DNA from: Anolis carolinensis
Lineage: Eukaryota
NCBI RefSeq assembly: GCF_035594765.1
Contig: NC_085842.1
Location: 16,406,782 to 16,470,781 of the forward strand
DNA: 64,000 nt
Reading direction: 5' to 3'
The translations under genes were made by a program, and so were the position numbers. The first letter of the stretch is position 1. The number at the start of each line of letters is the position of its first letter. Below are positions 7,103-63,867 of the stretch, piece by piece. The notes under the pieces were generated by a model that saw nothing but the letters and a program-made list of their open reading frames with translations, made no database searches and had not been told where the DNA came from.

Positions 7103-7537
7103 ATGGCAGAATTTGCCCAGGGGCACAGCTCCGTGATGAAGAAGCAAGGCATAAGGCAAGGATCGCCTCCTGTTCAGGCTGGGAGCAAAGGAACATCCTG
7201 GGAAAGAGGAAGCGTGCAGACGAGGACGGTGAAGGATACGCTTAGTTCAGAGGCACAGCGCCAGGACTTTCGACAGTCCTGCTATGAGGACACTGAGACA
7301 CCCCGGGAAATATGCAATCGACTCCACTCTCTCTGCCGCCGGTGGCTGAAGCCAGAGCAACACACCAAGGCCCAAATCCTGGATCTGGTGGTCCTGGAGC
7401 AGTTCCTGGCTGTCCTTCCTGCGGATATAGAGAACTGGGTGAGGGAATGTGGGGCAGAGACCTGCTCCCAGGCGGTCGCCTTGGCAGAAGGGTTCCTCCT
7501 GAGTCGGGCAGAAGAGAAGAAGCAGCAAGATCAGCAG
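7103..7537 (+). CDS. Gene A SCAN-domain exon
   Basis: [51 protein letters not shown]...[20 protein letters not shown]; donor CAG|GTGAGA. Confidence 0.92.
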
Positions 7538-10500
7538 GTGAGAAGCTTTTTTATCTTTAAAAAACAAATTGGAAAACTCTTCCAATTCAACACTCCATGG
7601 TATTTTCTGAAAACCATCCAATTCATTCCCTGTTTCTTTTCTAAACATTCCCTTTGCCCTCTCCTCTGTCGTTTTGTAGCAGGAAGTCTTCATGGGAGAA
7701 TCTGCTGATTTCCCCGATGTTGAGAAGGGTCCTTTTGGCTCCAGAGAGAGAAGGCAGCACAGATGGACTTCTCAGAAACAGGAGGAAGATGCCATCACCT
7801 TGAGCTCCGATATGGATAAGGTAGGAGGTAGGATCCCTGGTCAGCCAAGAAGGGGACAGTTGTGATATCCCTCTCACTCAGGGTCTGAAAAAAAAATCTC
7901 CATCTTCTTTCTTTCCATCACTCTGACATCTAATAGTGATCTTTGGACTTCATCGGATTACTCTGGGAAGTGTTCAGAAGTGTCAGAAGAAGAGAGTTCA
8001 GTCTAACTCCATTTTGTAATAAAATTGAGTTTTTCCCTACCTTTTAATCACAGTGTTTAGTGTACTCAGTTATCTTGCGTATTTTTCAATGAAAAGGTTT
8101 CCACACTGCAGACATTTGGCCCCGCTCACCATCCATCTCGGTGCTTTTTGGTACTTCTGTTGTGGTAATCTCTGAGCGGTTAGACTCAATTTAACCCTCT
8201 CTGGGGGAGATTCCACCAAAATGCAGCAGAGTAGCAAAAGCAGAGCTTTTAAATGCAACAGTTACTTACATGGGGTGAGCAAGAGAAGCCTTTGATCATT
8301 TAGGATTGCAATGGAGTGCAGAGTCTCAGTAAAAGTTCAAAAAGTATTTATTCAGGTAAAAAGAACTCCATTGTAGATAGAAAGGCTTGGGAGCTGTCTA
8401 GTCTACTCTAGACTGGTTTCTAAGGAAAAATAAGAAAGGAAAAATACCAAACATCTAAATAGTTACATCTTTCCAGGAGAGATGGTGAGATGCTTCTTGT
8501 TAGTTAGAAGAACAAAGGGAGAAGAGGGCTTAGAGAGGGGCGACTGACCGCATGGTCCTGCCTTTTATTGGGGCAATAAACATTCCAATGGATAGAAAGT
8601 TAGTATCCCTAAAGAGTCACATTTCTACTAAATTCAAAGTAAGGGATGTGACGTAAACAGGATAGAGTGAAACACAGTAAAGCCTGTCTAGGCATACTTT
8701 GGAAACAGGGAAAGGATTCCCTCAATCTAACTCTATCATCTATCTAACTACATTTAGACTTGAGTAGTCCAGGATGATTCCCAACAACTTCAACTCCCAC
8801 AATTCCCAACAGCAGAGAGGGAGAGAGAGAAAAAAGGGATGGGAGGAAGGGAATCCCATTTGGAAGGGCAGCAGCAGAGGCTCAGCTGGTGTTTTGGACT
8901 ACAACTCCCACAATTCCCAAGAGCAGGGAGGGAGAGGGACAGAAAAGTGATGGGAGGGAAACCCATTTGGAATGGCAACAACACTGGCCTTCCCAGCATG
9001 GGACACAGACTAATCATGGAAAGAAGGAATAAAGGTACCCTAAAAGGCTATTTTTATTTTTATTTTTGCAAAGTGGAAGTGTTATAAGGTAGCTGTAGGG
9101 TTAATTCTGGCCAGCCTTGATTGATAGCCGCGAGGGCAAATGGCAAGGTCTTACATTTGAGCTACTTGACAGGAAGATGCATCACAGAGTGTGGAATGCA
9201 GGAGGTGCTTCGTGCACACAGAGAACAGACTTTTCAGAGAGACAGACATGCAACATGTGTCCGGATAGTTTTGGACAGTAAGCTATGTAAATACTGTAAA
9301 TAAAGCCTTAGAGCCGCTGAGTTTCAGCAGTTATAAATCAGCGAGGCTGTCGTGTTTTGTGATGCCATTTTCGCTGTTCGCAAAGTAGTCTGAGAGGGTG
9401 AGCTGAGGGCCAACTCATCAATCTAGTCGGGGTCCCCGGTTGAACCCTGACAGTAGCTTACAGCCAAACCTTCCTGCTTGGGGAGCAAAAGGAAATTGAC
9501 CAAAAAATTATTTTGACTCCTCCCCTAATTTCTCCTTCCACAAATTGGGTGATTCTAACTTGAGAGCAACGAGGGCTACTTCATTCGAAATTTGGCAAAA
9601 CATCCAAAGTTTTGAGAAAAATCTTATTTCCTCACCTCTTCCTGATACGTTGGAAAAAAAAATACTGCCCTCAATGTTTAAAAGACTCAAAAACTGCACT
9701 TTAACCATAATGAATGTGGTGAACCCAGTGGAGTACCAGATTTCAAGTGTAGAACTCAGTGGAATTTAAGTTATGTGGTGAAGTGGTTTATGAAGAATTA
9801 AGCTGTGTTTCCTAATCACAAGGTATTCATACAGTTTTCTTTTCTGACTGGGTCAGTATGTTTGTCTCACAGGTACAATGTCTTTTCCTAGGTAAACTTT
9901 GAGGCAGTGTCCGTGTGTTTCAGTGAGGAGGAGTGGGCCCTGCTGGACCCGGACCAAAGGGCCCTCCACAGGGAAGTCATGGAGGAGAACAGGTGGCTCC
10001 TGGCCTCTCTAGGTGAGTTCTTCTCATTGCCAAGGCTTCAGAATCACTGCAGCAGCCACAGGAAGAAAAGAGTCCATCCATCTGTTAGTTCCTAGCACAG
10101 GGGTCCCCAAACTAAGGCCTGTGGGCTGGATGCGGCCCTCCAAGGTCATTGACCTGGCCCCTGTCCTAAACTTTAGACTTAGGGTTGACCTAAGTCTACC
10201 TGGTCTTTGGAGGTCTCTTTGCTTATCTGTGGTCTTATGAGATCATCTAGATGGTCTTTGAAGGTCTCTTTGCTTAGCTACAGCCTTATGAGACCATCTA
10301 GATGGCTTTTGGAGGTCACTTTCCTTACCTATGGTCATATGAGACCGTCTAGATGGCCTTTGAGGTGTCTTATCTATGGTCTTCTGATGGCCTTATGAGA
10401 TCATCTAGATGGTCTTTGAGGGTCCCTTTCCTTACCTATGGTTTTTTGAGATCATCTTGATGGCCTTTGGGGACTCCTTTCCTTACCTATGGTCTTATGA

Positions 10501-13500
10501 AACCATCTAGATGGGCTTTGAGGTGTCTTATCTATGGGCTTCTGATGGCCTTATGAGATCATCTAGATGGTCTTTGAGGGTCCCTTTCCTTACTGATGGT
10601 CTTATGAGACCATCTAGATGGTCTTTGGAGGTCCCTTTGCTTACCTATGGTCTTGAGATCATCTAGATCAGGGGTCCCCAAACTAAGGCCCTCCAAGGTC
10701 ATTTACCTGGCCCCTGTCCTAAACTTTAGACTTAGGGTTAACCTAAGTATGAAATGGCTTGAAGGCACACAACAACAATCCTAATTTTGGACTATTTCAT
10801 AGTCCGGCTCCCCAACAGCCTGAGGGACTGTAAATCGGCCCTCCACTTAAAAAGTTTGAGGACCCCTGGCCTAGCAGATGGTCTCTATTCTCCATTTTCG
10901 GGAAAAAAAAGCCCAATGTATCTTGGTCTCTCACAAGATTCCACTTGTGAGAGCTGTTCAGCAGTGGAACTCTCTGCCCCGGAGCGTGGTGGAGGTTCCT
11001 TCTTTGGAGGCTTTGAAGCAGAGGCCGAATGGCCATTTGTCGGTGGTGCTTTGAATGTGATTTTCCTGCTTCTTGGCAGGGGGTTGGACTGGATGGCCCA
11101 TGAGGTCTCTTCCAACTCTATGATTCTATGCTTCTAAGTCTTCACCAGCAAGTGAAAGTGCAAAGGAGGATCTTTTCTTTCCTTGCTCCCTCTGAGTAGC
11201 CAAGTCTAGTTCTTCCCATTGAATTGTCCAGAATGCAGAAAAGGTCACAGCGTTCCAGAAGGAAAGATAAAGGGAGCAACGAGAGGGAACCACTGCCAGA
11301 ATTTGCTCAGTCTTTGCTGCAAAAAGAGGCTAAACACTAACAGCTATGGTTGCATTGTGGTAGGTCAGCAATAGAGAACAAGGGTTGCACTGGCCCCACA
11401 GGTCCTTGGGCTCACGCTCTAAAATCAGATTGCATGAAATGTATGCCCCAGCTTCACAGAATGTGTTTGAGAACTAACAACAAAGTCACAGTCCCCATGG
11501 GCCCAGCATGACAAGTTTCAGAACATATCCCTGAATGCCATCTATTGAGTGGATAATGGTACAGGCACATTCAGACTGAGTATCCCTTATTCAACATGCT
11601 TATCATCCCCCCAGGAAATTTTTAAATACCTCTATTTGCATATACAGTAGAGTCTCACTTATCCAACATAAACGGGCCAGCAGAATGTTGGATAAGCGAA
11701 TATGTTGGATAATTAGGAGGCATTAAGGAAGAGCCTATTAAACATCAAATTAGATTATGATTTTACAAATTAAGCACCAAAACATCATGTTATACAACAA
11801 AATTGACAGAAAATTACCTTCAGGCTATGTGTGTAAGATGTATATGAAGCATAAATTAATCTCATGTTAATACTTGGGTCCCTTCTCCAAAGATATCTCA
11901 TTATGTATATACAGTAGAGTCTCACTTATCCAAGCTCCACTTATCCAAGCTTCTGGATTATCCAAGCCATTTTTGTAGTCAATGTTTTCAATATATCGTG
12001 ATATTTTGGTGCTAAATTCGTAAATACAGTAATTACAACATAACATTACTGCGTATTGAACTACCTTTTCTGTCAAATTTGTTGTATAACATGATGTTTT
12101 GGTGCTTAATTTGTAAAATCTTAATGTAATTTGATGTTTAATAGGCTTTTCCTTAATCCCTCCTTATTATTCAAGATATTCGTTTATTCAAGGTTCTGTC
12201 AGCCCGTTTAGCTTGGATAAGTGAGACTCCACTGTATCTCTTTGACTGCAGCTAAGTTGCTTCTTTTTTGTTTTTCAAGGTAATTGTCAAGAGAAGGAGA
12301 ATGAAGAAGAACCAAGGATGTCTTCATTGCAAAAAGCGGAATATCCATTGAAAGAAGAGAAGAAAACAGAAACTGAAATTCAGGAGACATGGAGGAACAC
12401 ATCTTCTGCTTCTCAGTTTGAAGACATCTGGGGAATCTCTTTCCAAGAACTATTAGACAAAGGAAATGGCAGGAATGAATGCATTTCTCCTTGTTATGGG
12501 AGGAGCCTTGATTTTATAGACAGCCTTCACTTTCCGATGGACATTCATGCCGAAAGAATTCACATGAGAAAACAAAAATGTGTATTTTTAGTGTGTGGAC
12601 AGAACTTTGGGTGGAGTTCACCGTTTATGTCATACCAACAACCCCACATGAGGGACGATCCATTTAAAAACGTGGAGTGGGGCCAAAGTTTCAGTCCAGG
12701 CGGGCATTTCTTCCACCCTCACAATGGGGAGAAACCCTTTCAGTGCTTGGAGTGCGGAAGAGGATTCAGCCGGAAGTCGAACCTGACTGCGCACCAGTTA
12801 GTTCACACAGACGGGAAACCGTTCCAGTGCCTGGAATGCGGGAAGAGCTTCCGGTGGAAGCAAAAGCTCACTCAGCATCAAGTCATTCACACGGGGGAGA
12901 AGCCCTTTCATTGCCTGGAGTGTGGGAAAAGCTTCAGCCGGAAATCAACGCTCATTTCACATCGCTTAATTCACACCGGGGAGAAACCCTTTCAGTGTCT
13001 CGAATGCGGAAAGCACTTCAGATGGAAGCAAAAGTTCACCCAGCATCAGCTAATCCACACTGGGGTGAAACCATTTCATTGCTTGGAGTGCGGAAAGGGT
13101 TTCAGTCGCAAGTCCAACCTGATTTCGCACCAGCTGCTTCACACCGGGGAGAAGCCCTTTAAATGCCTTCATTGCGGGACAGCATTTAGATGGAAGACGG
13201 AGCTCACGCAGCATCAGTTGACACACGGCGGGGAGAAGCTGTTCCAGTGCTTGGAGTGTGCCAAGAGTTTCAGCCGGAGGTCAAGCCTCGTTTCCCATCA
13301 GTTCATCCACACCGGAGAAAAGCCCTTTCCGTGCCTGGAGTGTGGGAAGAGCTTCAGATGGAAGCAAAAGCTCACCCAGCATCAGTTGACTCACACCGGG
13401 GAGAAACCATTTCGTTGCGAGTGTGGGAAGGGTTTCAATCGCAAGTCCAACCTCGTGTCGCACCAGCTCCTCCACACGGGAGAGAAACCGTTTCCGTGCA

Positions 13501-14006
13501 TGCAGTGTGGGAAGAGCTTCAGGTGGAAGACGGAGCTCGCTCAGCACCAAACAACTCACACCGGGGAGAAACCGTTCCGGTGCACAGAGTGCGGCAAAAG
13601 TTTCAGCCGGAAGTCGAGCCTCATCTCACACCAGTTGATTCACACCGGGGAGAAACCGTTTCAGTGCCTGGAGTGTGGGAAGAGCTTCAGATGGAAGCAA
13701 AAACTCACCCAGCATCAGTTGATTCACACCGGAGAGAAGCCCTATCAGTGCGTGGAGTGTGGAAGGGGCTTTACTCACAAAATAAGCCTCACTCGTCATC
13801 AAAGAACTCACGCGTTTCCATGCTGCCGGGAGTGTGGAAAGAGTGTTGCTCAAAAAATAAGCCTCACTTCTTATCAAGGAACTCACACAGCAGAGGATTC
13901 CTTACTGTGTGTGGATTGTACAGAAAGTTTGTGTCAGAAACCACACATTCATTCGGAAGAAAAGTTTTCCTTTGACATTCGGCAACTCACACAGCAGACA
14001 ATATAA
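7103..14006 (+). CDS. Gene A: SCAN-KRAB-C2H2 zinc finger protein (~807 aa); exons 7103-7537, 7680-7820, 9892-10012, 12280-14006
   Basis: All junctions are GT-AG with compatible phases (0,0,1). Total 2424 nt open. SCAN, KRAB-A and 13 fingers in the expected order. Exon 2 boundaries are the least certain. Confidence 0.85.
9094..9452 (+). mobile_element. Solo LTR (359 bp)
   Basis: TGTAGGGTT...AACCCTGACA inverted termini, internal AATAAA near 9299, and a 5-bp TSD GTAGC on both sides. Confidence 0.8.
9892..10012 (+). CDS. Gene A KRAB-A exon (121 nt)
   Basis: [41 protein letters not shown]; acceptor TTTTCCTAG|, donor G|GTGAGT. Confidence 0.9.
10098..10868 (+). mobile_element. hAT-type non-autonomous transposon with an internal ~51-bp minisatellite and a duplicated left end
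   Basis: TIRs CAGGGGTCCCCAAACT...AGTTTGAGGACCCCTG and 8-bp TSD (T/G)CCTAGCA. Second left end at 10669. Confidence 0.8.
10950..11135 (+). mobile_element. CR1 3' end fragment
   Basis: Matches the CR1 3' end (GGGTTGGACTGGATGGCCCATGAGGTCTCTTCCAACTCTATGATTCTATG). Other short CR1 fragments at 46586-46757 (-) and about 27930-28255 (-). Confidence 0.8.
11912..12234. mobile_element. 323-bp Tc1/mariner (Tigger/pogo-like) MITE family 1; other copies 14332-14654, 16430-16752, 35636-35950, 40269-40591, 40898-41220, 50104-50426, 62550-62872; partial copies at 11645, 40184, 50738
   Basis: TIR CAGTAGAGTCTCACTTATCCAA with TA duplication. The empty site for the 62550 copy is visible in the paralogue at about 48771 (CATATACCAA). 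Confidence 0.9.
12280..14006 (+). CDS. Gene A zinc-finger exon (13 C2H2 fingers, one with CxC spacing, plus degenerate C-terminal fingers)
   Basis: ORF 12318-14006 with repeated CxxCGKxF...HxxxHTGEKPF. In frame with acceptor TTTTTCAAG| at 12279. Confidence 0.95.
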
Positions 14007-14146: not shown

Positions 14147-14984
14147 GTTTTGTCGAAGGCTTTCATGGCCAGGATCACAGGGTTGTTGTATGTTTTTCGG
14201 GCTGTATGGCCATATCCCAGAAGTATTCTCTCCTGACGTTTCGCCCACATCTATGGCAGGCATCCTCAGCATTTAGGTGATTAACTACAACATTCACACT
14301 GACCTCTCTCACCCTAGACTTTCCACAAATACAGTAGAGTCTCACTTATCCAACACTTGCTTATCCAACGTTCTGGATTATCCAACGCATTTTTGTAGTC
14401 AATGTTTTCTATATATCATGATATTTTGGTGCTAAATTCATAAATACAGTAATTACTACATAGCATTACTGCGTATTGAACTACCTTTTCTGTCAAATTT
14501 GTTGTATAACATGATGTTTTGGTGCTTCATTTGTAAAATCATAACCTAATTTGATGTTTAACAGGCTTTTCCTTAACCCCTCCTTATTATCCAACATATT
14601 TGCTTATCCAACATTCTGCCGGCCCGTTTATGTTGGATAAGTGAGACTCTACTGTATATATTTACCTCTTTGCTTAGTTTTCTCCATACCTCACAACCTC
14701 TGCGGATGCCTGCCATAGATGTGGGCGAAACGTCAGGAGAGAATACTTCTGGAACATGGCCATACAGCCCGAAAAACATACAACAATCCTGTGTTGTTGT
14801 ATGCTTTTTGGGCTGTATGGCCATGTTCCAGAAGTATTCTGACATTTCACCCACATCTACCTCTGCGCATGCCTGCCATAGATGTGGGCGAAACGTCAGG
14901 AGAGAATACTTCTGGAACATGGCCATACAGCCCGGAAAACACACAACAACCCTGTGATCTCGGCCATGAAAGCCTTCGACATAC
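14147..14984. mobile_element. Penelope-like inverted pLTR cluster; similar inverted pairs at 23033-23413, 27403-27628, 35526-36086, 47857-48531
   Basis: Reverse and forward copies of the same ~130-bp unit ending GGCCATGAAAGCCTTCGACAACA, each with a hammerhead-like CTGAGGA...GAAACGTC core. Confidence 0.75.
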
Positions 14985-16806: not shown

Positions 16807-17134
16807 TGTCAGGGTGCAACAAAGAACAGCATCATCAAAGCTGGTCTTTTCGCAACCTGACTACAAGAGGACAGAGGAAGGAGACCATTTGGCAGGATAG
16901 GCTGATTTATGACAGGGTCTGGTCTTCAAACGTGGGAAAGGACCAAAGGAAAGGGAGGTGTGGATGGAGAAGGAGGAGGGGGGAGGCAACAACCCCATAT
17001 ACTGAGGGGAAAAGCGGAAGAGAGTCAGTAAAAGCTTTTGCAGTCATCTTGGCAAGGCGGATTCAATAAAGTTTTCCATTGCGACCAGCGGTGTGAGCCT
17101 ATTTCTTGGGTCCTACACCTTCCAGGAGCGGACA
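16807..17134 (+). repeat. 5' LTR
   Basis: Direct repeat of 22161-22488. TATA-like CATATAC at about 16996, Inr-like TCAGT at 17025-17029, AATAAA at 17065-17070. Confidence 0.97.
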
Positions 17135-17136
17135 TT

Positions 17137-17147
17137 AAGCTTTTACT
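17137..17147 (+). promoter_or_regulatory. Self-priming primer binding site (non-tRNA)
   Basis: AAGCTTTTACT, 2 nt after the LTR, is the exact reverse complement of AGTAAAAGCTT at 17027-17037 inside the LTR. Confidence 0.75.
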
Positions 17148-17197
17148 CCCTTTTTTTTCCGGCTCATCCCGTGAGGAAAGGTCTCTCCGGTGAGAGC

Positions 17198-18568
17198 ATG
17201 AACCCTGATGGAGGAGAAACCATGAAGGAATTCCTCTTCCTGGAAGAAGAACAGGCGAACCCTCGAGGTGCAGAGGAGTTGAGAGAGGAAAGGAACCCAT
17301 CGCCCGCATTGAGCGAAGGGGGGACAGACCCCTCGGACCCGTCGTGGAAGCCGCTGACCTCCACCCAGTTACCCGCAGGCAGGGGAGTGACGGTGAGACG
17401 GAAGATCCAGATGGGAGGCGATTGGCAGCGAGACGGAGAGGGAGCCCCGGAGATGAGAAGGATGGAGAGGAGATTAGATGCGATGGAGAAAATGTTTGAA
17501 ACTTTCTCTCGACAGATGGATCTGATGCAGCGGCAGGTAAACGAGTCCTGGAGGGCGACAGTCGAGCAACGGGAGCAGAGGAGAGGGCTGCCCGGGAGAG
17601 GGACTGAACCCCGTCCCTTTGCCGGGGAGGGTCCACAGGACTATGTGGATGAGATGCCTCAGCAGGGCACATCAGTTTTCCCCACGGGCCTGTCGGGAAG
17701 GAGCCAAATGCCTGGGAAGGGAGAATTTCGGGTGAAGTTCAACGGGGACCCCAAACAGCTGTCTTATTTCATTACAAACGTAAGACACTTCATGGAGGAT
17801 TTTGGGGACCAATTCCCTTCAGAAAGCGCAAAAATCCACATGGTGGGGGCAAACTTGAAAGAAGCAGCTGCAGACTGGCTAATGCAGATGTATGATACTG
17901 GTGCCCGGGAGCTAGCCTGTCTGGAGGATTTCCTAAGAGCCCTCCGTGAGAGATTCGAAGACCCTTTGGCAGAGGAGAGGGCGAAGGCCCAACTCAAAAG
18001 GATATACCAGGGAGGAAGGACAGTGTCAGAATATGCCCTGGAATTTAAAGCCACAGCGGGGAAGATCAGGGACTGGTCCGACACCACCAAACTGGAATAT
18101 TTCAGGGCTGGTTTACGCTCTGAGGTGCTCGAGTGGGCTTTACACAGAGGAAATCCAAGAGACTTGGAGGACTGGATTTTGCTAGCGGGGCGCGTGGAGG
18201 TGGACCAACAGCAAATCTCTCGTCGTCCAAGGGAGAGCAACAGAATCAAACCCCCGACAGCAGCAACACGGCGCTTCTCCCCTCGTCGCGGAAGGTCGAC
18301 CAGCAGGGAGAGGAGAGCAGGGAGGGGGGCCTGCTTCGCTTGCGGCCGCGAGGGACATCGAGCGGCAGAGTGTCCGAAAGGGACAGGCGTGGAGACAAAA
18401 GGAGAGAGGCTTCACAGCCAGAAGCCACCCCACCAGAGCTCCAAACTAGCAAAAGGGAAAGCTGCCATGGCAACGGAAACGGCTTTAGCCCCAGGGCAGC
18501 TTCAGGCAGAAGAGATGGAGGAAGCGGAGGACCTGGAGTTACCGGGAAACGACTGGGATCTGTTTTGA
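17198..18568 (+). CDS. gag: Gag (456 aa): capsid domain plus CCHC zinc knuckle
   Basis: First ATG after the LTR. FNGDPKQLSYFI...AAADW...QGGRTVSEYALEF retrotransposon-gag motifs and CFACGREGHRAAEC knuckle. Confidence 0.92.
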   Translation: MNPDGGETMKEFLFLEEEQANPRGAEELREERNPSPALSEGGTDPSDPSWKPLTSTQLPAGRGVTVRRKIQMGGDWQRDGEGAPEMRRMERRLDAMEKMFETFSRQMDLMQRQVNESWRATVEQREQRRGLPGRGTEPRPFAGEGPQDYVDEMPQQGTSVFPTGLSGRSQMPGKGEFRVKFNGDPKQLSYFITNVRHFMEDFGDQFPSESAKIHMVGANLKEAAADWLMQMYDTGARELACLEDFLRALRERFEDPLAEERAKAQLKRIYQGGRTVSEYALEFKATAGKIRDWSDTTKLEYFRAGLRSEVLEWALHRGNPRDLEDWILLAGRVEVDQQQISRRPRESNRIKPPTAATRRFSPRRGRSTSRERRAGRGACFACGREGHRAAECPKGTGVETKGERLHSQKPPHQSSKLAKGKAAMATETALAPGQLQAEEMEEAEDLELPGNDWDLF

Positions 18569-18601
18569 ACGCCCGGAAACAGATCGAACCACCAGAGGGC
18601 G
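18544..18601 (+). promoter_or_regulatory. -1 programmed ribosomal frameshift signal (G GGA AAC + H-type pseudoknot)
   Basis: Heptamer 18544-18550 in the gag frame, 6-nt spacer, stem 1 18557-18566/18576-18585, stem 2 CGCCC 18570-18574/GGGCG 18597-18601. pol is in the -1 frame. Confidence 0.85.
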
Positions 18602-29883: not shown

Positions 29884-31520
29884 CTACAAACATCCAAAGG
29901 GTTTCTCCCCTGTGTGAATTCTTTGATGTGTCAAAAGTGCTGATTTATCACTGAAGCTGTTCCCACACTCCAAGCACTGAAAGGGTTTCTTTCCTGAATG
30001 AGTTACTTGGTGGCGATTTAAGCTTACTTTGTATGGGTAACTTTTTCCACACTCTGCACACTTGTAGGGTTTCACCCCTGTATGTATACTTTGATGCGAC
30101 ACAAAGGCTTGCTTCCAGCTGAACCTCTCTCCACACTCCAAGCATTCAAAGGGCTTCTCTCCTGTGTGAGTTTTGCAATGACGAGTGAGGTATGGCTTTT
30201 TAGAGAAGCTCTTCCCACAGTCCGAGCACTCAAACGGTTTCTCCCCTGTGTGAGTTGCTTGATGATTAGTGAGGCAAGTCTTCTGATTGAAGCTCTTCCC
30301 ACACTCCAAGCACTTAAACAGTTTTTCCCTTGTGTGAGTTGACTGATGGGAAATGAGACGTAATTTGCGACTGAAACTTTTCCCACACTCCAAGCACTGA
30401 AATGGTTTCTCTCCTGAGTGGGTCCTGTAATGGCGAGTGAGGTGCTGCTTTTGAGAGAAGCTCTTCCCACACTCCAAGCACTGAAACGGTTTCTCCCCCG
30501 TGTGAGTTGCTCGATGAGAAGTGAGACTTGATTTGCAAAAGAAACCTTTCCCACACGCCACACATTGAAAGGGCTTCTCTCCAGTGTGCGTAGCTAGATG
30601 ACGACTCAGGTTTGTTTTTTGACCAAAGGTTTTCCCACACTCCGAACATTTGAACTGCTTCTCTTCTATGTGAGTTACTTCATGATTGATAAGGTGCGTC
30701 TTCTGACTGAAACTCTTCCCACACTCCAAACACTGAAAAGGTTTTTGTCCTGTGTGCTTTCTGTAATGGCGGACGAGGTGTGCCTTTTGAGAGAAACTGT
30801 TTCCGCACTCCAAGCACTGAAACGGTTTCTCCCCTGTGTGCGTTGATTCATGAATAGTGAGACTTGATTTGCGAGTGAAACATTTCCCACACGCCACACA
30901 CTGAAAGGGCCTCTCTCCAGTGTGAGTAGCTAGATGACGACTAAGAGATGTTTTTCGACCAAATGTTTCCCCACATTCCAAGCACTGATATGGTTTCTCT
31001 CCTGAGTGCGTGTCCAGATGACGAGTGAGTTGTTTCTTCCTAGTGAAGCTCTTTCCGCATTCAAGGCATTTAAAGGGTTTCTCCCCTGGGGGCATTCCTT
31101 GATGTGACACAAAGTTTGACCTCCACCGGATACTCTTTACGCACCTCAGATAGTTAAAGGTTTTCTCTCTCATTTGAAATCTTTCATGGGAAATCAGAGG
31201 CTTCTTTATACTGGGTGTCCTTTTCCACATACCAGCTTTGAAGGATTTCTCCTCTGAGTGAATTCTTCTATGAACGATAAGGCTTGCTTTACACCTAAAG
31301 CTTTTCCCACACAGGAAACAAAGACATTTACTCCTTTCTTTCCTGTTCCCTGTTATTTCTTCGACTGAGATGTCACCCTCCTGAGAAGCAGGATACATGT
31401 CCCTTCCATTGCCATTGGTGTCTGATTTTCTTTCATTCCTTGTCATCTGCTCCTGCTTGTTCCTTTGCAGGAATGCCTTGCTAGGTTCTCTGTTGTTCTC
31501 ACTCTCTTGCACGTCCCAAC
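29884..31520 (-). CDS. Gene B zinc-finger exon (14 tandem fingers + 1 isolated)
   Basis: ORF 29884-31539; acceptor TTTTTCAG|GTTGG. Confidence 0.95.
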
Positions 31521-33986
31521 CTGAAAAAGAAAAGCACAACTACTCATAGCCCAATCGAGATATATAGACGTAAGTGAAAGATGTAACACAATTATGAAGC
31601 TGAAATTGATTGACATTAAGCTATGGAAGCTTTTGAAAAGGGAGATGTGACTCCAGAGTCACTCTAATGCTTCTCCTGAGAGACCAGATCCATCATATTG
31701 GATATTCCATAACCTATTGCAAAACATTACTTATTGCATAAGCTATGGGAACAGAACTGAACTCAGTCTGTGGTCACATATCCTTTTGCAAATGTGAATC
31801 TCCATGAATATGTGGAGACCACCTTTGGAAAACCACTAGTCAAGAAAAGCATGACCTTGTTAGAAGTAAACTCTTTTAACAAGTGATATTAACAAGCATT
31901 AATGTAATGGCACACGCAGTGCTGGCCCAACATAACGGCCAATGTAAGCGCCTGCTTGTGGCGCATTTCACCGGGGGCGCTGTTGAGGTGCCCCCGCGGC
32001 GGCGGGGACCATCGGGTCCCTCCTCGCCAAACGTGGAAGGCCTCAATTGAGGCATCCCGCGTTCGGCGAGAAGGGACCCGATGGTCCCCGCCACCACCGC
32101 AGGTATGTGTGGGTCCTTGGAGGGGCGCAATTTCGGGGGGGGGGGGCACTAGGTTCGCCTACAAGGCGAAATTACCTAGGGCCGCTTCTGGGCACATGGG
32201 TAAATTCAGCTGTTAAACTGAAGAACCATGTCTTTAGACTGCTAAGGGTAAAGACATGCCACTACTAACATTTAGTTATGGTTGTTTCTTTGCAGTTGAA
32301 GTTGCCCAAAAGATATACGCTCCCTTTAAACCTCTTAGTTAAAATATGCATTCAGAGATTAAACAAAGCCTTCTTTAAAAAATAACATAACTTGTATTAA
32401 TTCACCATACAGGCACATTTCTTAATAAAGTTCAGTTACAGATAGGATGTAGCTGCTTCTTCTCTCTGTGTTAATAACACAGGGGATCAGTCTTAATCAA
32501 TAGTCTATAGTCTTTGAGTATATCTGTACTCACTGAAGTCCATAAGCAAATATTGAAGTCAGTTTAGAAGTCCAAATACCAACTGCTTTCATGAAGTCCA
32601 AACACACACTTGCATGCATCTACCTCCTCTGAGGTGCAAACAGATACTTTATACAAAATGGAGTCTTGAGTCCGCACATGCTCAGTATAATCACGTGTCT
32701 ATAACTCCTCTTGCAACAAAGAGGCAAATTAACAAACACATAGAGTACCGGTTACAAATAAATAGTGAGTGGCTTGGGAGGTTGCTATTTCCAACACATC
32801 AAGTCTCTCATCTCCTTCCCTGAAAGATACTCTTGGGATTTTGAAATCATACGAGCTGCTATCTCATTTTGTTTTCCCACATACCTTAAGCACATCAAAT
32901 TTCTCCTTTTGGTCAAGACTGGGGGAAGCCATGGGAGCTGATGGCTAAGGCAAGGAAGGCTGGGGAGGAGCTAAGAGCTCAATGGACCCAATCTTTCATG
33001 AAGCAGCTGCAACTAATTTGAACTGACCATGCAGCCTGTATTAATATTATTGAAATCATGAGTCCTGAAATACTTCAGTTTTATCTTTTAGAAAGTTTTC
33101 ATTTGCCTTTTATAATTGTGCATTAGATTATAATTGTGCATCTTGCCGTACTTTTAACCATGTTAATATATAATGGATGGTGAGATATGCCACATTCTTG
33201 TATCAGTTTGGATTTTTTTTATTGTGTGCTGAATGGTCAGATGCACTGGGAGTGAGAAGTACAGGCAAAGGCTAGCTACCAAAGTTGTCTTAGTGAGAGA
33301 CAGTATATAAAGGGGGAGGGGAGAAAATTCATGGGATGTTTTGATTAACTGGGAATGGGGTTGTAGTCTTTGTAAAATTGCCTAAATAATAATAATAATA
33401 ATAATAATTTTACTTTTTACTTGCCTTATTTATGGCTCGAGGTACATTACAGCATAATTAAAACACATAAACATTCTAAAAATTCTACAAATAGCAATGT
33501 TATAATGTATTTCAATAAAACATGTATATTTAAAATTTATTTCTATAAAATACATATTAAAATACACATAACAGAAATGGTAGATTTGCGTGAAACCCAA
33601 AGGAGTGGATCGACGACAAATCAGATGGGATAGGATAAGATAACAGAGAGTAAACACAAGACACAAGTTTAAAATTCATGCTATAAACTATATCCTTAAA
33701 TCCTAATGATTGTGTACGAAAATCTAACTAAAGCTTCTAGACTTTTGAGATATTTTGGTTTCTGGACTAGAGTTAGCCTGTACATGACAAATTTAAGAAG
33801 GCTGAAGAAGAGTACTATTTTTTATCCTGTATTTTTGTTTTAATTGATATATTGTATTACTGTTTTCTCCTTTTATAGTGTGATTTGTATTATGTTGCCT
33901 ATGTTTTGTCCTATGTTGTTTGGGCCTCTGCCCCATGTAAGCCGTCCCGAGTCCCCACGGGAAGATGGTGGCGGGGTATAAATAAA

Positions 33987-34028
<42 letters not shown>

Positions 34029-37000
34029 AACAATGCTATTGTTCTTGTAAACTGATTAGAAAGAGTCTTACCTAGAGAGAACACCATCCTCAAATTCTCA
34101 TCCATGACTTCTCCATGGAGGGCCCTTTGGCCTGGAGACAGCAGGGCCCACTCCTCCTCCGTGAAATCCACAGACACCTCTTCAAATGTCACCTGAATTA
34201 ACAAGACATGAGCCATGAGTCGTGGTGTGGAAAGGTCTGTCAGGAGGCAAAGGCAAGGCAAGAGTTCTGCTAAGAAAGGGACAATCTTCAAAGGACGTGA
34301 GCACCCAGCCAACCCTCTTTTCCACCCAACAGGAATCCTGTCCCTCACCTGGTTTGGCCTCATAGGAACTGTTCTAGATCCATCCGTATGAAGAGATGCT
34401 TTTGGCCATGTCCTTGTTGCACCTCCTGTAAGGAAAACAAAACGGATCAAGGAATATTCTTTACTACACTCTCTGTTTCTGATTTAATATTTCCGTAACA
34501 GGCAGAGAGCAAAAAAGCATTGATACACACACACACAAATAGGAAGGTAATTACAGAATCAAAGTAACTGCTACATGGAAATTATCTTAATCTGGAGACC
34601 AGACAGAACTAAAAGGAGACCAGACAGAACTAAACAGTTGCATTAGATCTTAACAGTTTGAAGAAAGGTCTTAGAAATTTGGTTGAGAACCAAACACGAC
34701 AGAGTTCCTGTCAAGGGGTAAAGGAGACTAGACTTTTCTAATACTGGTTATAATGCCATAAATAATGTTCAGCTCTTACCTACTTTTCCTTTGAAAAGTT
34801 ACATAGATTTTAGCTTAGAACTGTGTCCTATGGAATATAGTTACTAGGACTTTTTTGGTTTAGAATCATGAGTGTTTCCATCTAGTACATCTTTCATTTC
34901 ACTCCTCTCCCTTTAAGATAAAAGTATGAGAGAAAAGGGAAATGCTGAGGTCTGTGCTAACATGTCAGCACTCTTATCAACTCAACTGCTTCAACCTGTC
35001 TATATTCTGTGGCAAATGCCATACTAAACGCACAAAAACAATTAGAATATGTCAGCAGAAGGAAAGTAATCCTGAGCTTGGCAGGGATGAAAAACAATGA
35101 ACAAATGTGGAGTGGGCTGGGCCTGCTTTAGACCCTTGTTAGGCACCAGGGCTGGGGACATTAGAGATGGTAACACATTTGGGCGTCCCCTGGGCAACGT
35201 CTTTGGAGATGGCCAAATCTCTCACACCAGAAGCGACTTGCAGTATGTTCTCAATTTGCTTCTGACACGATTAAAAAAGCACCAGGGCTAAAAAATTCAT
35301 AGCTATCCAGTGATGTAAAACAATTAACGTGTATTAGTGGCCTTGTTTGATACATTTTTGTATGCACTTGGCAGGAATCCTTACCCACTGAGGTGGATGC
35401 GCTGTTACCATCTTGTGTGACCCACTCATTCTTCACCTCAACCGTCTCTTTGGCAAAGATGGTCTGTACCGAGGACAGGAAAGAAAAAAGAAAATTAGGA
35501 AGAAGACAAAGTCTGGAAGACTAGAGTTGTTGTATGTTTTCCAGGCTGTATGGCCATGTTCCAGAAGTATTCTCTCCTGATGTTTTGCCCACATCTATGG
35601 CAGGCATCCTCAGAGGTTGTGAGATATATCATATACAGTAGAGTCTCACTTATCCAACACTCGCTTATCCAATGTTCTGGACACATTTTTGTAGTCAATG
35701 TTTTCAATACATCATGACATTTTGGTGCTAAATTCGTAAATACAGTAATTACTGCATAGCATTACTGCGTATTGAACTACTATTTCTGTCAAGTTTGTTG
35801 TATAACATGATTTTTTGATCCTTAATTTGTAAAATCATAACCTAATTTGATGTTTAATAGGCTCTTCCTTAATCCCTTTTTATAATCCAACATAATCGCT
35901 TATCCAACGTTCTGCCGGCCCGTTTATGTGGGATAAGTGAGACTCTACTGTACCTCACAACCTCTGAGGATGCCTGCCATAGATGTGGGTGAAACGTCAG
36001 GAGACAATACTTCTGGAACATAGCCATACAGCCTGGAAAACACACAACAACCCTGTGATCCTGGCCATGAAAGCCTTCGACAACACATCTGAAGGACTAC
36101 TTTTCACTATATCCAAATAAAGAGGAAAGCAGTGGGGAGTTTTCCTATACCGAAAAACCTCAGTTAACGAGGTAGATGTGTTTCTATGCAACATGGGAAG
36201 AGGCTGGGATGTGCTACTGTGTTTCCCCAAAAATAAGACAGTCTTATATTAATTTTTGCTCCCAAAGATGTGCTAGGTCCTATTTTCAGAGGATGTCTTA
36301 TTTTTCCATGAAAAAGAATTCACATTTATTGTTGAATTAAAAAATGAACATTTATGTTATACTGTACAGCAGTTCTCATCACAAACTAGCATAACCAGAC
36401 AAACTGTGAAATCCTATCAAGAATTTCTTGTTACTACCATTATTTCCATGTACATCAATCTATGGTACGTACATTTACTGATCCTGCACGTTCTGGTGTT
36501 CGGTTCGGCAGGCATGCTTCCAAAAAAAACCTTTGCTACGTCTTACTTTCAGGGGAGGCCTTATATTTAGCAATTCACCAAAACCTGTACTAGGTCTTAT
36601 TTTCAGAGGATGTCTTATTTTGGGGGAAACAGGATATTGGCACCACAGCCCTCCTGAGCTCAGGGCCACTCCACAAACTGGGAGGGATAGCCAACACTCC
36701 AGAAGAAAGGAGCAGAATTCAAAACGATCTTGACAGACTAGAGAGATGGGCCGAAACTAACAAAATGAAGTTCAACAGGGACAAATGCAAGATACTTCAC
36801 TTCGGCAGAAAAAATGGAAATCAAAGATACAGAGTGGGTGACACCTGGCTAGATAGCAGTACATGTGAAAAAGATCTTGGAGTCCTTGTGGACAACAAGT
36901 TAAACATGAGCCAGCAATGTGATGCGGCTGCTAAAAAAGCCAATGGGATTCTGGCCTGCATCAATAGGGGAATAGCGTCTAGATCCAGGGAAGTCCTGCT

Positions 37001-38144
37001 CCCCTCTATTCTGCCTTGGTCAGACCACACCTGGAATACTGCGTCCAATTCTGGGCACCGCAGTTGAAGGGAGATGTTGACAAGCTGGAAAGCGTCCAGA
37101 GGAGGGAGACTAAAATGATCAAAGGTCTGGAGAACAAGCCCTATGAGGAGAGGCTTAAAGAACTGGGCATGTTTAGCCTGCAGAAGAGAAGGCTGAGAGG
37201 AGACATGATAGCCATGTACAAATACGTGAGGGGAAGTCATAGGGAGGAGGGAGCAAGTTTGTTTTCTGCTGCCCTGCAGACTAGGACATGGAACAATGGC
37301 TTCAAACTACAGGAAAGGAGATTCCACCTGAACATTAGGAAGAACTTCCTCACTGTGAGAAGGACTATTCGGCAGTGGAACTCTCTCCCCTGGACTGTGG
37401 TGGAGGCTCCTTCTTTGGAGGCTTTTAAACAGAGGCTGGATGGCCATCTGTCGGGGTGCTTTGAATGCAATTTCCTGCTTCTTGGCAGGGGGTTGGACTG
37501 GATGGCCCATGAGGTCTCTTCCAACTCTACTATTCTATGATTCTATGATTCTGGAGAGGAGAGACATGGGACTAGTGCTGAGCCAAAGCAATGAGTCCTG
37601 GCCGTAGCAGTAGGAAAACCTTAACAGAGGAAGGCGCTGGCTCCACCTGCATACTATTGTATGCATTCCAGAGTAAAGACTATGTTTTTGAATGCTACCA
37701 CTCTGGATTGTTTTTGTATTTGGCTCAGAAACCAATGGAAGTGTTACTACTCACCTGCTGCTCTTTGAATTTCTCCTCTTCTGCCCGACTCAGGAGGAAT
37801 CCTTCAGCCAAAGCCACGGCCTGGGAACTGGTCTCTGCCCCACATTCCCTCACCCAGCGCTCCATCTCCGCAGGAAGGATGGCCAGGAACTGATCCAGGA
37901 GCACCAGGTCCAGCATCTCCGCCTTTGTATGTTCCTCGGGCTTCAGCCACAGGCGGCAGAGAGAGTGGAGGTGGTTGCAGACCTCTCGGGGTCCTCTGCC
38001 TTCTTGGTAGATGATCTGCCTGAAGCCTTGTTGTGCATCTCCCGGCTCCTTCTGCATGGCTCCTCCAAAGAATCCCCTTCCATGCTGAGCCTGAACAAGG
38101 CCAGGCCGTTCTCCCCACTCGGGGCTCACTGTGTGCATGGGCAT
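29884..38144 (-). CDS. Gene B: SCAN-KRAB-C2H2 ZNF (~767 aa); exons 38144-37755, 35463-35385, 34425-34349, 34192-34072, 31520-29884
   Basis: GT-AG junctions, phases 0/1/0/1, 2304 nt open. Exon sizes 79/77/121 are conserved in genes C and D. Confidence 0.88.
31696..32796. mobile_element. Solo LTR-like insertion (1.1 kb) in the last intron of gene B
   Basis: TATTGGA...TCCAACA inverted termini and TSD CATCA. Empty site CCATCAAGTCTC is present in the paralogues (about 46818 and 58874). Confidence 0.75.
31917..32190. mobile_element. GC-rich hAT-like MITE with an internal ~92-bp palindrome
   Basis: Imperfect TIR CAGTGCTGGCCC/GGGCCGCTTCTG and 8-bp TSD GGCACA(C/T)G. Confidence 0.7.
34072..34192 (-). 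CDS. Gene B KRAB-A exon
   Basis: [41 protein letters not shown]. Confidence 0.9.
36217..36634. mobile_element. Tc1/mariner-type MITE family 2 (~420 bp); other copies 46106-46523 and 48002-48431
   Basis: TIR C(C/T)GTGTTTCCCCGAAAATAAGAC with TA duplication. Empty site GTGCTATTGG is present in the paralogues. Confidence 0.85.
36673..37550 (+). mobile_element. CR1 LINE, 5'-truncated
   Basis: ORFs 36765-37067 and 37016-37540 (ORF2 C-terminus) and an ATTCTATG tail. Absent from the paralogous introns. Confidence 0.93.
37755..38144 (-). CDS. Gene B SCAN exon
   Basis: [51 protein letters not shown]...AVALAEGF. Confidence 0.9.
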
Positions 38145-38734
38145 CTCAGCCTGTAACCTGTTCCCACACTGAGTGCTTTGCTCTCAATCACCTCCCTCTC
38201 TTCCTCTCTCATCCCTGCCTGGGCCTTTCCCCTTCACCTCACCATTGAATTCTCCCACTTCCTTAACTTCTTCCTCTTCCTCTTCCTCCTCTCCCTGTCA
38301 AAAAGAACTGAGTGGGGGCAGGCTGTTACCCAGAAATCATTCTTGCCCATAGTCCCACCCCTTCCTACTATAGTCATGCTCCTTCCTAGAGCAGAGCAGG
38401 AAGGAACCACAGGGACCTCAGAAGGACTGTATTGAAGACTTTGGCGCCTTCTAGAGGACTCCACCTCATGTGCGAGGAAGTCCAATTAATGATATCAACA
38501 TTAATATTGTTAGGATAATAACAATATCCTGCAAATCTCTTGGGAAGACAGGCGTACAAACGTCAGTATGTTGGAAGAAGCCAAGACCTCCAGCACTGAA
38601 GCAATGCTCGTGTCCCATCAACTCCACTGGACTGGCCACCTTGTCCGAATACCCACTCACTGTTTCCCAAAGCAGTTACTCCACTCCCAACTCAAGAACG
38701 GAAAACGCAAAGTTGGTGGACAGGAAAAGAGATT

Positions 38735-44847: not shown

Positions 44848-49499
<4,652 letters not shown>

Positions 49500-51986
49500 T
49501 CCAACCTGTAACCTGTTCCCACATTGGCTGCTCTGCTCTCAATCCCCTCCCTCTCTTCCTCTCTCATCCCTGGCTGGGCCTTTCCCTTTCACCCCACCAT
49601 TGAACACTCCCACTTCCCTGCCTTTTTCCTCCTCCTTCTCTCCCCACACAAAAAGGACAGGCTGTGACCCAGATCTCACTCTTACCCATAGTCCCACCCC
49701 TTCCTACAATACTGATGCTCCTTCCTAGAGCAGAGCAGGAAGGAGCCACAGGGACCTCAGAAGGACTGTATTGAAGACTTTGGCGCCTTCTAGAGGACTC
49801 CATCTCATGTGCGAGGAAGTCCAATGAATGATATCAACATTAATATTGTTAGTATAATAACAACAATATCCTGCAAATCTCTTGGGAAGACAGGCATACA
49901 AACGTCAGCATGTTGGAAGAAGCAATGATCTCCAGCACTGAAGCAATGCTCGTGTGCCATCAACTCCACTGGACTGGCCACGTTGTTCAAATACGCGCTC
50001 ACGGACTTGTTTCGATATTCCAAGGAAGGGAGGCAGAAGCAAACACAGACTTAAAATCAGCGTAGTGGATACAGCAAAAATAACAACTATTATATTACAA
50101 GTACGGTAGAGTCTCACTTATCCAACATAAACGGGCCGGCAGAATGTTGGATAAGCAAAGATGTTGGATAATAAGGAGGGATTAAGGGAAAGCCTATTAA
50201 AGATCAAATTAGGTTATGATTTTACAAATTAAGCACCAAAACATCATGTTATACAACAAATTTGACAGAAAAAGTAGTTCAATACGCAGTAATGCTATGT
50301 AGTAATTACTGTATTTACGAATTTAGCACCAAAATATCATGATGTTTTGAAAACATTGACTACAAAAATGTGTTGGATAATCCAGAACGTTGGATAAGAG
50401 AATGTTGGATAAGTGAGACTCTACTGTAGTTGCTTGTAATTAGTTTTTCACCTGCTGGTATAGTCAGTTTTGTGGTGGCTACTAAGTCAAAAGCTTTTGT
50501 TTGCCGTGAGCTTACTCTAATGCTGAAGAAGAGTAAGAAGAAGAAAGAAAGAAGGAAGGAAGGTGTAAGAAACAACCAAGCAAGTCAGAGTTTGAAGTTC
50601 CAGGACACTTACAACTTAATGAAAGTCAACACAAAGTTTGTTGGCCACAGGGACAAGTTCCTGGCGTGTCTGTTGCGCTGCTGCAGAAGAGGTAAGAATA
50701 CCTCCAGGCAGCCCTTCTGTTTCTGCCTTTGGAATTACAGTAGAGTCTCACTTATCCAACACTCGCTTATCCAACATTCTGGATTATCCAACGCATTTTT
50801 GCAGTCAATGTTTTCAATATATCATGATATTTTAGCATTTTAGTATCTTTAATCATTCAGTGGGAACGATATGTGTTGGAAAAGGCACAAAGCACAGGAG
50901 GACTGACCCGTTCTGGTTCTGTTTGCTTGAGAAGCTTTCAACCACTAGGATGGTTTCTACAAGGGCCCAGCTACGCAAAGCCTCCACTATGAACACTGTG
51001 CCTAACCTAGTTTAGAAGTCAATTCTAGAATACTATGATCCAGCAAACACCGGGAAAGAACCAGGAGCAAGTGAACACCAGCTGGATCATGAATTCATGA
51101 ACTTGGCTGCATTGGGCAGAGCGGGTACTTCAAAGACAATTTGTACAACAGCAGAGAAAATGGATGAGGACGATGAAGCTGTGTCTAGTGCTCGACTTTC
51201 CCTTAATGAAGGTGCTGCTAATTAGTCCATTGACCCAGGTTTGAGGGAACTGACCCCTCCACCTCCATCGGAAAGACAAATTAGCTGCATACATAGAAAT
51301 TATAAACCCTCTCAAAGATAGGATTGGCAGACTTGACTCAATACTATTGGAGAACATCATCCCTTCATTGCATAACCTCATGCGAGACCAATGCTTCCTA
51401 GTAGAGCAGACAGCAGAATACCCACTCACTGTTTCCCAAAGCAGTTACTCTACTCCCAACTCAAGAATGGAAAACAGAATGTTACTGGACAGGAAAAGAG
51501 ATTGAAAGATGGGCTTAAAGCTAACCTTAAAAATTGTGGCATAGACACCACAAGAGAGAACTGGGAAGCCCTGGCCCTTGAGCGCTCTAACTGGAGGTCA
51601 GCTGTGGTGGCGGCATAGTGGGCTAAAGCCTTGTGATTTGAAGGTTGGGTTGCTGACCTGAGGGCTGCCAGGTTCGAATCCAACTCGGATGAACTCCCTC
51701 TATCAACTCCAGCTCCATGCGGGGACTTGAGAGAATCTTCCCACAAGGATGGTAAAAACATCATCACCTTGCAGACAGCCAATTCTCTCACACCAGAAGT
51801 AACTTGCAGTTTCTCAAATTGCTTCTGATACGAAAAAAAAAGCTGTGACCAGCAGTGCTGTGGAAATTGAAGAAGCACAAATGGAGGGCGAAAGGGAGAA
51901 ATGTGCCAAGAGGAAAGTGCCTCACGCCAACCCTGATTGGGACTGCCTTCCACCTGGAAACCGATGTCCTTACTGTGGATGAACAA

Positions 51987-58494: not shown

Positions 58495-58537
<43 letters not shown>

Positions 58538-63570: not shown

Positions 63571-63867
63571 CTCAGCCTGTAACCTGTTCCCACATTGACT
63601 GCTAAGCTCTCAATCACCTCCCTCTCTTCCTCTCTCATCCCTGCCTGGGCCTTTCCCCTTCACCCCACCATTGAACACTCCCACTTCCCCACCTTCTTCC
63701 TCTTCCTCCTCTCACTGAGTGGGGGGCAGGCTGTTACCCAGCTGTCACTCTTGCCCATGGTCCCACCCCTTCCTACTATAGTTATGCTCCTTCCTAGAGC
63801 AGAGCGGGAGGCAGCCACAGGGACCTCAGAGGGACTGTATTGAAAACTTTGGCGCCCGCTAGAGGAC

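Follow-up and report, generated by a model that had tools for sequence, protein, structure and literature searches.

A strictly periodic twelve-finger contact code in a SCAN-KRAB zinc-finger protein of Anolis carolinensis and its predicted simple-repeat target

The gene for a SCAN-KRAB zinc-finger protein, here called gene A, was analyzed in a stretch of 64,000 nucleotides from Anolis carolinensis (NCBI RefSeq GCF_035594765.1, contig NC_085842.1, positions 16,406,782-16,470,781, forward strand), referred to as the window. A four-exon model translated exactly to the protein XP_062829318.1 (P0016). The public name of this protein, zinc finger protein 737 isoform X2, was assigned automatically, and orthology to human ZNF737 is not implied. 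The SCAN domain, the KRAB box and the C2H2 array were all matched by Pfam. PF02023 and PF01352 scored above their cutoffs and the finger array was located in one 3' exon spliced in frame, which bears out the SCAN-KRAB assignment made in an earlier reading of the letters alone (the sequence-only reading). Run X18 gave a contig in which the finger exon follows directly on the last bases of the KRAB exon. Contigs of runs X1 and X6 also ended at the acceptor of the finger exon, while the DNA-type run X2 read on into the intron, and gene A is therefore spliced; the RNA label of X1, X6 and X18 is a guess by software. Features of the window are collected in Table 1.

Table 1. Coordinates of gene A, its finger units and the neighbouring elements in the window.
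Feature	Position	Strand	Remarks
Coding exon 1, SCAN domain (residues 49-137)	7103..7537	+	Pfam PF02023 122.4 bits, cutoff 27
Coding exon 2, linker	7683..7820	+	AG/GT borders, phase 0
Coding exon 3, KRAB-A box on its own exon	9892..10012	+	PF01352 60.3 bits, cutoff 20.4
Last coding exon: spacer, 13 C2H2 fingers, degenerate tail, stop	12280..14006	+	
Four-finger unit 1	12744..13058	+	RSNA WQKQ RSTS WQKQ
Four-finger unit 2	13080..13394	+	RSNS WTEQ RSSS WQKQ
Four-finger unit 3	13416..13727	+	RSNS WTEQ RSSS WQKQ
Finger 9	13416..13475	+	C-x-C spacing, one codon lost
Finger 13 (HISR)	13749..13811	+	Outside the period; helix identical in all three species
Ty3/Gypsy long terminal repeat retrotransposon, full-length	16807-22488	+	Just downstream of gene A
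Paralogous SCAN-KRAB gene, first of three in tandem	29884-38183	-	14 canonical fingers
Paralogous SCAN-KRAB gene, second	44909-49538	-	9 canonical fingers
Paralogous SCAN-KRAB gene, third	54237-63609	-	18 canonical fingers

The array consisted of 13 fingers at 12744-13811 on the plus strand. The residues at helix positions -1, 2, 3 and 6 (contact residues) were RSNA, WQKQ, RSTS, WQKQ, RSNS, WTEQ, RSSS, WQKQ, RSNS, WTEQ, RSSS, WQKQ and HISR, exactly as given in the sequence-only reading. The six-fold alternation of two finger types claimed there, with Trp at -1 of every second finger, was seen in this list as well as in a shuffle test, in which the observed lag-2 minus lag-1 contrast was reached in 102 of 100,000 random orders of the 13 fingers. 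A higher-order repeat had also been proposed, with fingers 5-8 equal to fingers 9-12. This was right and is stronger than stated, since position +3 of the odd fingers is N, T, N, S, N and S and the four-finger period thus spans fingers 1-12. Contact identity over these twelve fingers was 0.88 at lag 4 and 0.00 at lags 1 and 3. Tandem Repeats Finder detected periods of 84, 168 and 336 in the array, with 67, 73 and 78% matches. The array holds five related helix types in this fixed period. As a separate observation, the GC fraction at third codon positions (GC3) was 0.69 and the observed/expected CpG ratio 0.66 in the array; the corresponding values were 0.46-0.52 and 0.35-0.54 in the three neighbouring arrays, and the CpG ratio of the whole window was 0.38. 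GC-biased conversion is one possible cause of these raised values.

For comparison, 395 proteins were fetched by similarity to gene A, and are therefore not a random sample; 164 of them had at least 12 contiguous fingers. Gene A and its orthologues (five records) took places 1-5 in alternation among these 164 long arrays, with scores of 0.71-0.76, and the next score, 0.52, belonged to P0262. The latter is a recent duplicate array in which framework identity (0.94) exceeds contact identity (0.72), the opposite of gene A. In P0283 the excess of contact over framework identity was 0.28 and resembled that of gene A, and the pattern is therefore rare rather than unique. P0283, an unrelated zinc-finger protein with several finger clusters, likewise carries an old array of alternating type (QGDK / EGNR) and is a candidate periodic reader in its own right.

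The units of the array were found to be old. Synonymous divergence (pS) between like fingers was 0.656 for odd-odd and 0.687 for even-even pairs, equal to that between unlike, odd-even fingers (0.657) and near saturation, while non-synonymous divergence (pN) was 0.14 and 0.13, respectively. For fingers 5-8 versus 9-12 pS was 0.515, and the closest single pair was fingers 8 and 12 with 0.31. A recent duplication, whether neutral or minisatellite-like, was rejected on these values (0.52-0.69 pooled, lowest single pair 0.31); near-zero synonymous divergence, which the sequence-only reading had named as a result that would speak against its own interpretation, was not seen. Contact identity between like fingers was 0.73, compared to 0.26-0.27 in other arrays of equal framework identity, and like fingers matched at about five of nine variable framework positions. 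Between units 2 and 3, non-synonymous changes were observed at 0 of 38 contact sites and at 23 of 147 framework sites (Fisher p 0.005). The 11 variants observed in four sequencing runs comprised nine synonymous and two missense changes, and none fell on a contact residue.

Orthologues with 13 fingers in the same order were recovered from Anolis sagrei (XP_060615540.1, XP_067321271.1) and Sceloporus undulatus (XP_042311456.1), with near-identical contacts. Compared with A. carolinensis, A. sagrei differed at 1 of 52 contact and 23 of 117 framework positions (p 0.0015), and Sceloporus at 2 of 52 and 42 of 117 (p 2.7e-6). The constraint contrasts within the array and between species thus agree with the earlier remark that the framework varies while the contact pattern persists. 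By these sequence comparisons the array is conserved across two lizard families, and its contact residues are more constrained than the framework and appear to be under purifying selection. The oddity is that the paralogous fingers retained their contacts through the divergence of both synonymous and framework sites. Deeper orthologues were absent from the best 120 of 7905 matches, the best 120 of 6049 shorter proteins and the best 150 profile matches, lists so dominated by generic long arrays that absence outside Anolis and Sceloporus is not established. The word-based search covered proteins of up to 1005 residues. A search with the spacer returned the query alone and missed the known anole orthologues too, and was uninformative; a PDB search gave generic finger arrays only. 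An assembly artefact was rejected, since the orthologues share the order of the 13 fingers and contigs covering the array came from four runs. Apparent joints in the contigs had 18-32 letters on the short side and came from other zinc-finger genes.

Other internally duplicated arrays are the PRDM9-type minisatellite arrays and the two-finger repeat of ZFX/ZFY. In recent PRDM9-type duplicates the framework stays alike and the contacts diverge. Gene A shows the reverse of recent duplicates such as P0262, namely like contacts in a diverged framework. An explanation of the period could nevertheless be frozen history, in which ordinary two- and four-finger duplications built the array, only a subset of fingers binds, the likeness of the units is maintained by structural constraint or occasional gene conversion, and the period says nothing about the target. 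C2H2 arrays grow mainly by two-, three- or four-finger duplications, and internally duplicated arrays with two- and four-finger units like those of gene A are known (PMC1553488). Fingers 8 and 12 share 77 of 84 bases with an exact run of 39 bases, and A. carolinensis has a damaged finger 9. Units 2 and 3 of Sceloporus show 10 differences in 112 residues, compared to 16 for orthologous units. Late duplication and gene conversion are inseparable in this species because the two units are so alike, and the unit tree leaves the node open. Conversion would, however, homogenise synonymous and framework sites as well, and in most pairs these have come close to saturation. Conservation between species extends to all 13 helices rather than to some of them, and the ordinary duplicated array P0262 carries the reverse signature. 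Frozen history is accordingly regarded as improbable.

The array could also bind RNA or a repetitive protein surface in place of duplex DNA, with exposed tryptophans stacking on bases. Few background fingers have Trp at -1 (81 of 1670), and the helix type of gene A was absent from all other proteins among the 395 fetched. Against such a ligand, linkers and spacing are canonical (exceptions are given below), fingers with Trp at -1 and measured specificity for duplex DNA exist, and the constraint sits on the DNA-contact positions. This was judged the most remote of the explanations considered.

A rough specificity matrix was drawn up to predict the DNA target, using part of the supplement of PMC4005693 and a table of PMC3139592. 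Arg at -1 in the absence of Asp at 2 was assigned G and Asn at 3 was assigned A, both from the finger RSSNLTR. Trp at -1 was assigned T from two fly fingers (0.83-0.90); in one human finger, listed as GGW, it specifies A or T (PMC3139592). Lys at 3 was assigned G, Ser at 3 T or C, Thr at 3 C, and Glu at 3 a mixture. Gln at 6 was given C, then A or T and rarely G (0.002-0.03). No matrix for any gene A helix was found in the portion of the PMC4005693 supplement examined, and tryptophan is not mentioned in the main text of PMC4330361. In the direction from finger 12 to finger 1, the unit of 12 base pairs (bp) predicted by the rough matrix was approximately (C/A)GT N(T/C)G (C/A)NT NAG. Repeats were scored in three settings, i.e. 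with the full matrix, with position 6 ignored, and with Trp accepting A equally. (TGAG)n ranked first of 39 tetranucleotide classes in all three, with 25.5/45.4, 27.7/38.1 and 27.4/40.4 bits. The best dinucleotide was (TG)n or (AG)n, depending on the assumption for Trp. When the twelve columns were shuffled, the P values, post hoc and uncorrected, were 0.016-0.028 at period 4, compared to 0.002-0.033 at period 2; periods 3 and 5 gave nothing in the shuffle tests. A two-finger period corresponds to 6 bp and fits a dinucleotide repeat, and a four-finger period corresponds to 12 bp and fits a tetranucleotide. A periodic site follows, however, only if many fingers bind together at about 3 bp each. 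The rough recognition-code check leans towards simple repeats rich in TG and GA, at a modest level of statistical support.

Binding to (TTAGGG)n at telomeres or interstitial sites, or to variants of this repeat, in the frame GGT TAG was considered as well, the sequence-only reading having named a telomere-like repeat among the possible targets. All twelve -1 residues fit this frame (Arg with G, Trp with T), and when position 6 was ignored TTAGGG tied for first place among 366 hexamer classes with other NGTNAG hexamers. It ranked only 119 with the full matrix, in which Gln at 6 disfavours G, and 184 with Trp accepting A. A pure 6-bp repeat needs no four-finger period, and none of the 13 fingers carries the RxxHxxR motif common to ZNF524, ZBTB48 and ZBTB10. 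The SCAN-KRAB part of the earlier target claim stands, while its telomere-like part is weakened and now appears very unlikely.

The main rival is a short motif of about 6-12 bp, read by the repeated units, which is clustered or forms an internal repeat of a transposable element (TE) or of a unique regulatory site. Such a target would be locally periodic without being a microsatellite. This explanation predicts the same pattern of constraint, and a TE motif is compatible with the data because an internally repeated TE or unique site leaves the same signature. The top-scoring units of the full matrix were CpG hexamers (CGTNAG, 33.1), not common microsatellites. In addition, short motifs in clusters are what BCL11A binds with its duplicated finger pairs (PMC12006351), and most human KRAB zinc-finger proteins (KZFPs) with a target favour TEs (PMC10547255). 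On the other side, a fixed 13-finger code in two lizard families would be less expected for a decaying TE, and the weak fit to periods 2 and 4 beyond shuffles is not predicted. A clustered motif was considered unlikely, though it is the strongest of the alternatives.

The likeliest reading, at a probability of about 0.45, is that the gene A protein reads degenerate TG/GA-rich simple repeats with a 12-bp period. The array consists of three copies of a four-finger unit, each made of two two-finger units, with the contacts apparently held by purifying selection. Several units would engage the DNA at once at about 3 bp per finger. With Arg at -1 preferring G, Trp at -1 T or A, Asn at 3 A, Lys at 3 G, Ser or Thr at 3 T or C and Gln at 6 C or A, a 12-bp unit would be specified, and a predicted target is for example (TGAG)n or (TG)n with GA interruptions. 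The array could dock on a repeat tract in several registers, and for this reason the loss of finger 9, or a weaker unit 1 in Sceloporus, would be tolerated. A narrower version, in which the protein is a molecular ruler for a tetranucleotide microsatellite, is rather unlikely. Each unit would then read 12 bp, equal to three tetramers, of a (TGAG)n-like tract, with Asn or Ser at +3 tracking GAG or GTG, and a KRAB box that does not use KAP1 would protect or mark the tracts.

Several observations speak against the simple-repeat reading. A. carolinensis, alone among the three species, lacks one codon between the cysteines of finger 9, a loss bridged without gaps by contigs in three of four runs; the recognition helix of this finger is unchanged. 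In Sceloporus, the tryptophans of fingers 2 and 4 (unit 1) are replaced by Ser and Leu, and several linkers in the array are non-canonical. For these reasons binding need not involve every finger of the array. The basis of the hand-set matrix was a small number of measured engineered or fly fingers, none of which has a helix of gene A; Trp at -1 rests on three fingers with other helices, Lys at 3 on two, and Glu at 3 is nearly uninformative. (TGAG)n reaches 25.5 of 45.4 bits, below the 33.1 of the CpG hexamers, which lie above any common microsatellite, and the best dinucleotide flips to (AG)n if Trp accepts A equally. Stricter shuffling within position classes gave P values of 0.028-0.16 (period 4) and 0.010-0.11 (period 2), and five informative periods in three settings were tried post hoc. 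A scan of the 64-kb window with the rough matrix gave no site above shuffles, the best being a TG tract at 23172 (13.4 compared to 10.1 +/- 3.1 in shuffles), and three consecutive TGAG were not present in the window. In silico prediction for long arrays has been called extremely challenging, and old KZFPs normally have constrained contact positions (PMC10547255).

The KRAB box of gene A was unusual at the KAP1 interface. The structure of KRAB with KAP1 shows a salt bridge made by Asp8, a residue required for silencing, and Tyr29 as part of the core; the interface comprises, in ZNF93 numbering, Asp8, Val9, Ile11, Phe13, Leu21, Tyr29, Val32 and Met33 (PMC9753469). With the numbering transferred by eye from the KRAB consensus, Asp8 is replaced by Ala in both anoles and by Lys in Sceloporus, Tyr29 by His and Ile11 by Val; the other five interface residues are kept. 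The three neighbouring genes have the acidic Glu at position 8 and, like gene A, His at position 29. The KRAB box of Sceloporus had a lower Pfam score of 46 bits. Because Asp8 is absent and Tyr29 is His, recruitment of KAP1 (TRIM28), and silencing through it, is doubtful for gene A. Under the simple-repeat reading the outcome would likely be weak or no KAP1 silencing, speculatively nearer to repeat protection of the Zscan4 type than to classical transposon repression.

Gene A shares its SCAN domain, KRAB-A box, single last exon of tandem fingers and nearby paralogues with the SCAN-KRAB C2H2 proteins of tetrapod clusters. It differs from these proteins generally by a strictly periodic, old and selected code and by a KRAB box without Asp8. 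BCL11A, which is not known to have KRAB or SCAN, contains two modules 300 residues apart, compared to six contiguous modules in gene A. The likeness lies in duplicated two-finger modules with retained base-contacting residues, of which the two BCL11A arrays share five of six (PMC12006351). ZNF524, ZBTB48/TZAP and ZBTB10 are C2H2 arrays that read periodic DNA, as proposed for gene A, but their recognition depends on an RxxHxxR finger, a type absent from gene A, and they need one to four fingers (PMC10716145). The closest functional model is mouse Zscan4, a SCAN zinc-finger protein with a protective role at (CA)n, to which it binds in nucleosomes (PMC7083622); TG/CA microsatellites are the class of target predicted for gene A. 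Zscan4 has four fingers and a short motif (PMC12539977), whereas gene A has 13 fingers, KRAB and a periodic code; its binding is predicted and orthology is not claimed. Low-complexity or simple repeats, satellites and tRNAs are the targets of 71 of 349 human KZFPs with targets (PMC10547255).

The surroundings of gene A were also inspected. The Ty3/Gypsy element is flanked by a 5-bp target duplication, and its terminal repeats (about 328 bp, TG...CA; 16807-17134 and 22161-22488) are identical. The frames for gag (17006-18568) and pol (18124-22023; protease, reverse transcriptase, RNase H, integrase, SH3) are open. These three features indicate a very recent insertion into the zinc-finger cluster. 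The three paralogues share finger blocks and none has a period comparable to that of gene A; a local triplet, QCMS QTMS QSMS, was noted in the third. The intron between the KRAB and finger exons contains, at 10201-10668, a tandem array of nine copies of a 51-bp unit with a higher-order period of 158 bp. Short non-coding repeat copies with terminal inverted repeats, resembling by eye miniature inverted-repeat transposable elements, lie on either side of the finger exon (11649-12238 and 14333-14655). Many (AAT)n tracts were observed across the window.

The SCAN-KRAB family and repeat-binding zinc-finger proteins are already known. The KZFPs of reptiles are nearly unstudied, and the one paper found that combines KRAB, SCAN and zinc fingers with both Anolis and squamates is a general TE review. 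In the literature searched, which did not extend to subscription journals and bioRxiv supplements, there was no mention of the helices or accessions of gene A, nor of any KRAB protein whose twelve-finger code is old, selected and strictly periodic. Gene A thus offers a solid and rare sequence feature with a predicted target, its array being, as far as sequence can tell, rare, old, periodic and selected. The targets of long zinc-finger arrays are usually unpredictable, and the array of gene A amounts to a natural experiment. With five helix types in a fixed, conserved period, a single run of SELEX could test both end-to-end binding and the match between the periods of array and target. It would also extend the recognition code by Trp at -1, as it occurs naturally in a vertebrate. 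If the ruler version is true, the period of a natural array could be read as the period of the DNA it binds, and periodicity would be enough to find other proteins of this kind, P0283 being a second candidate. Squamate genomes show extreme variation in microsatellite content (PMC6050309), and because of this variation a dedicated reader of simple repeats would be a plausible host response.

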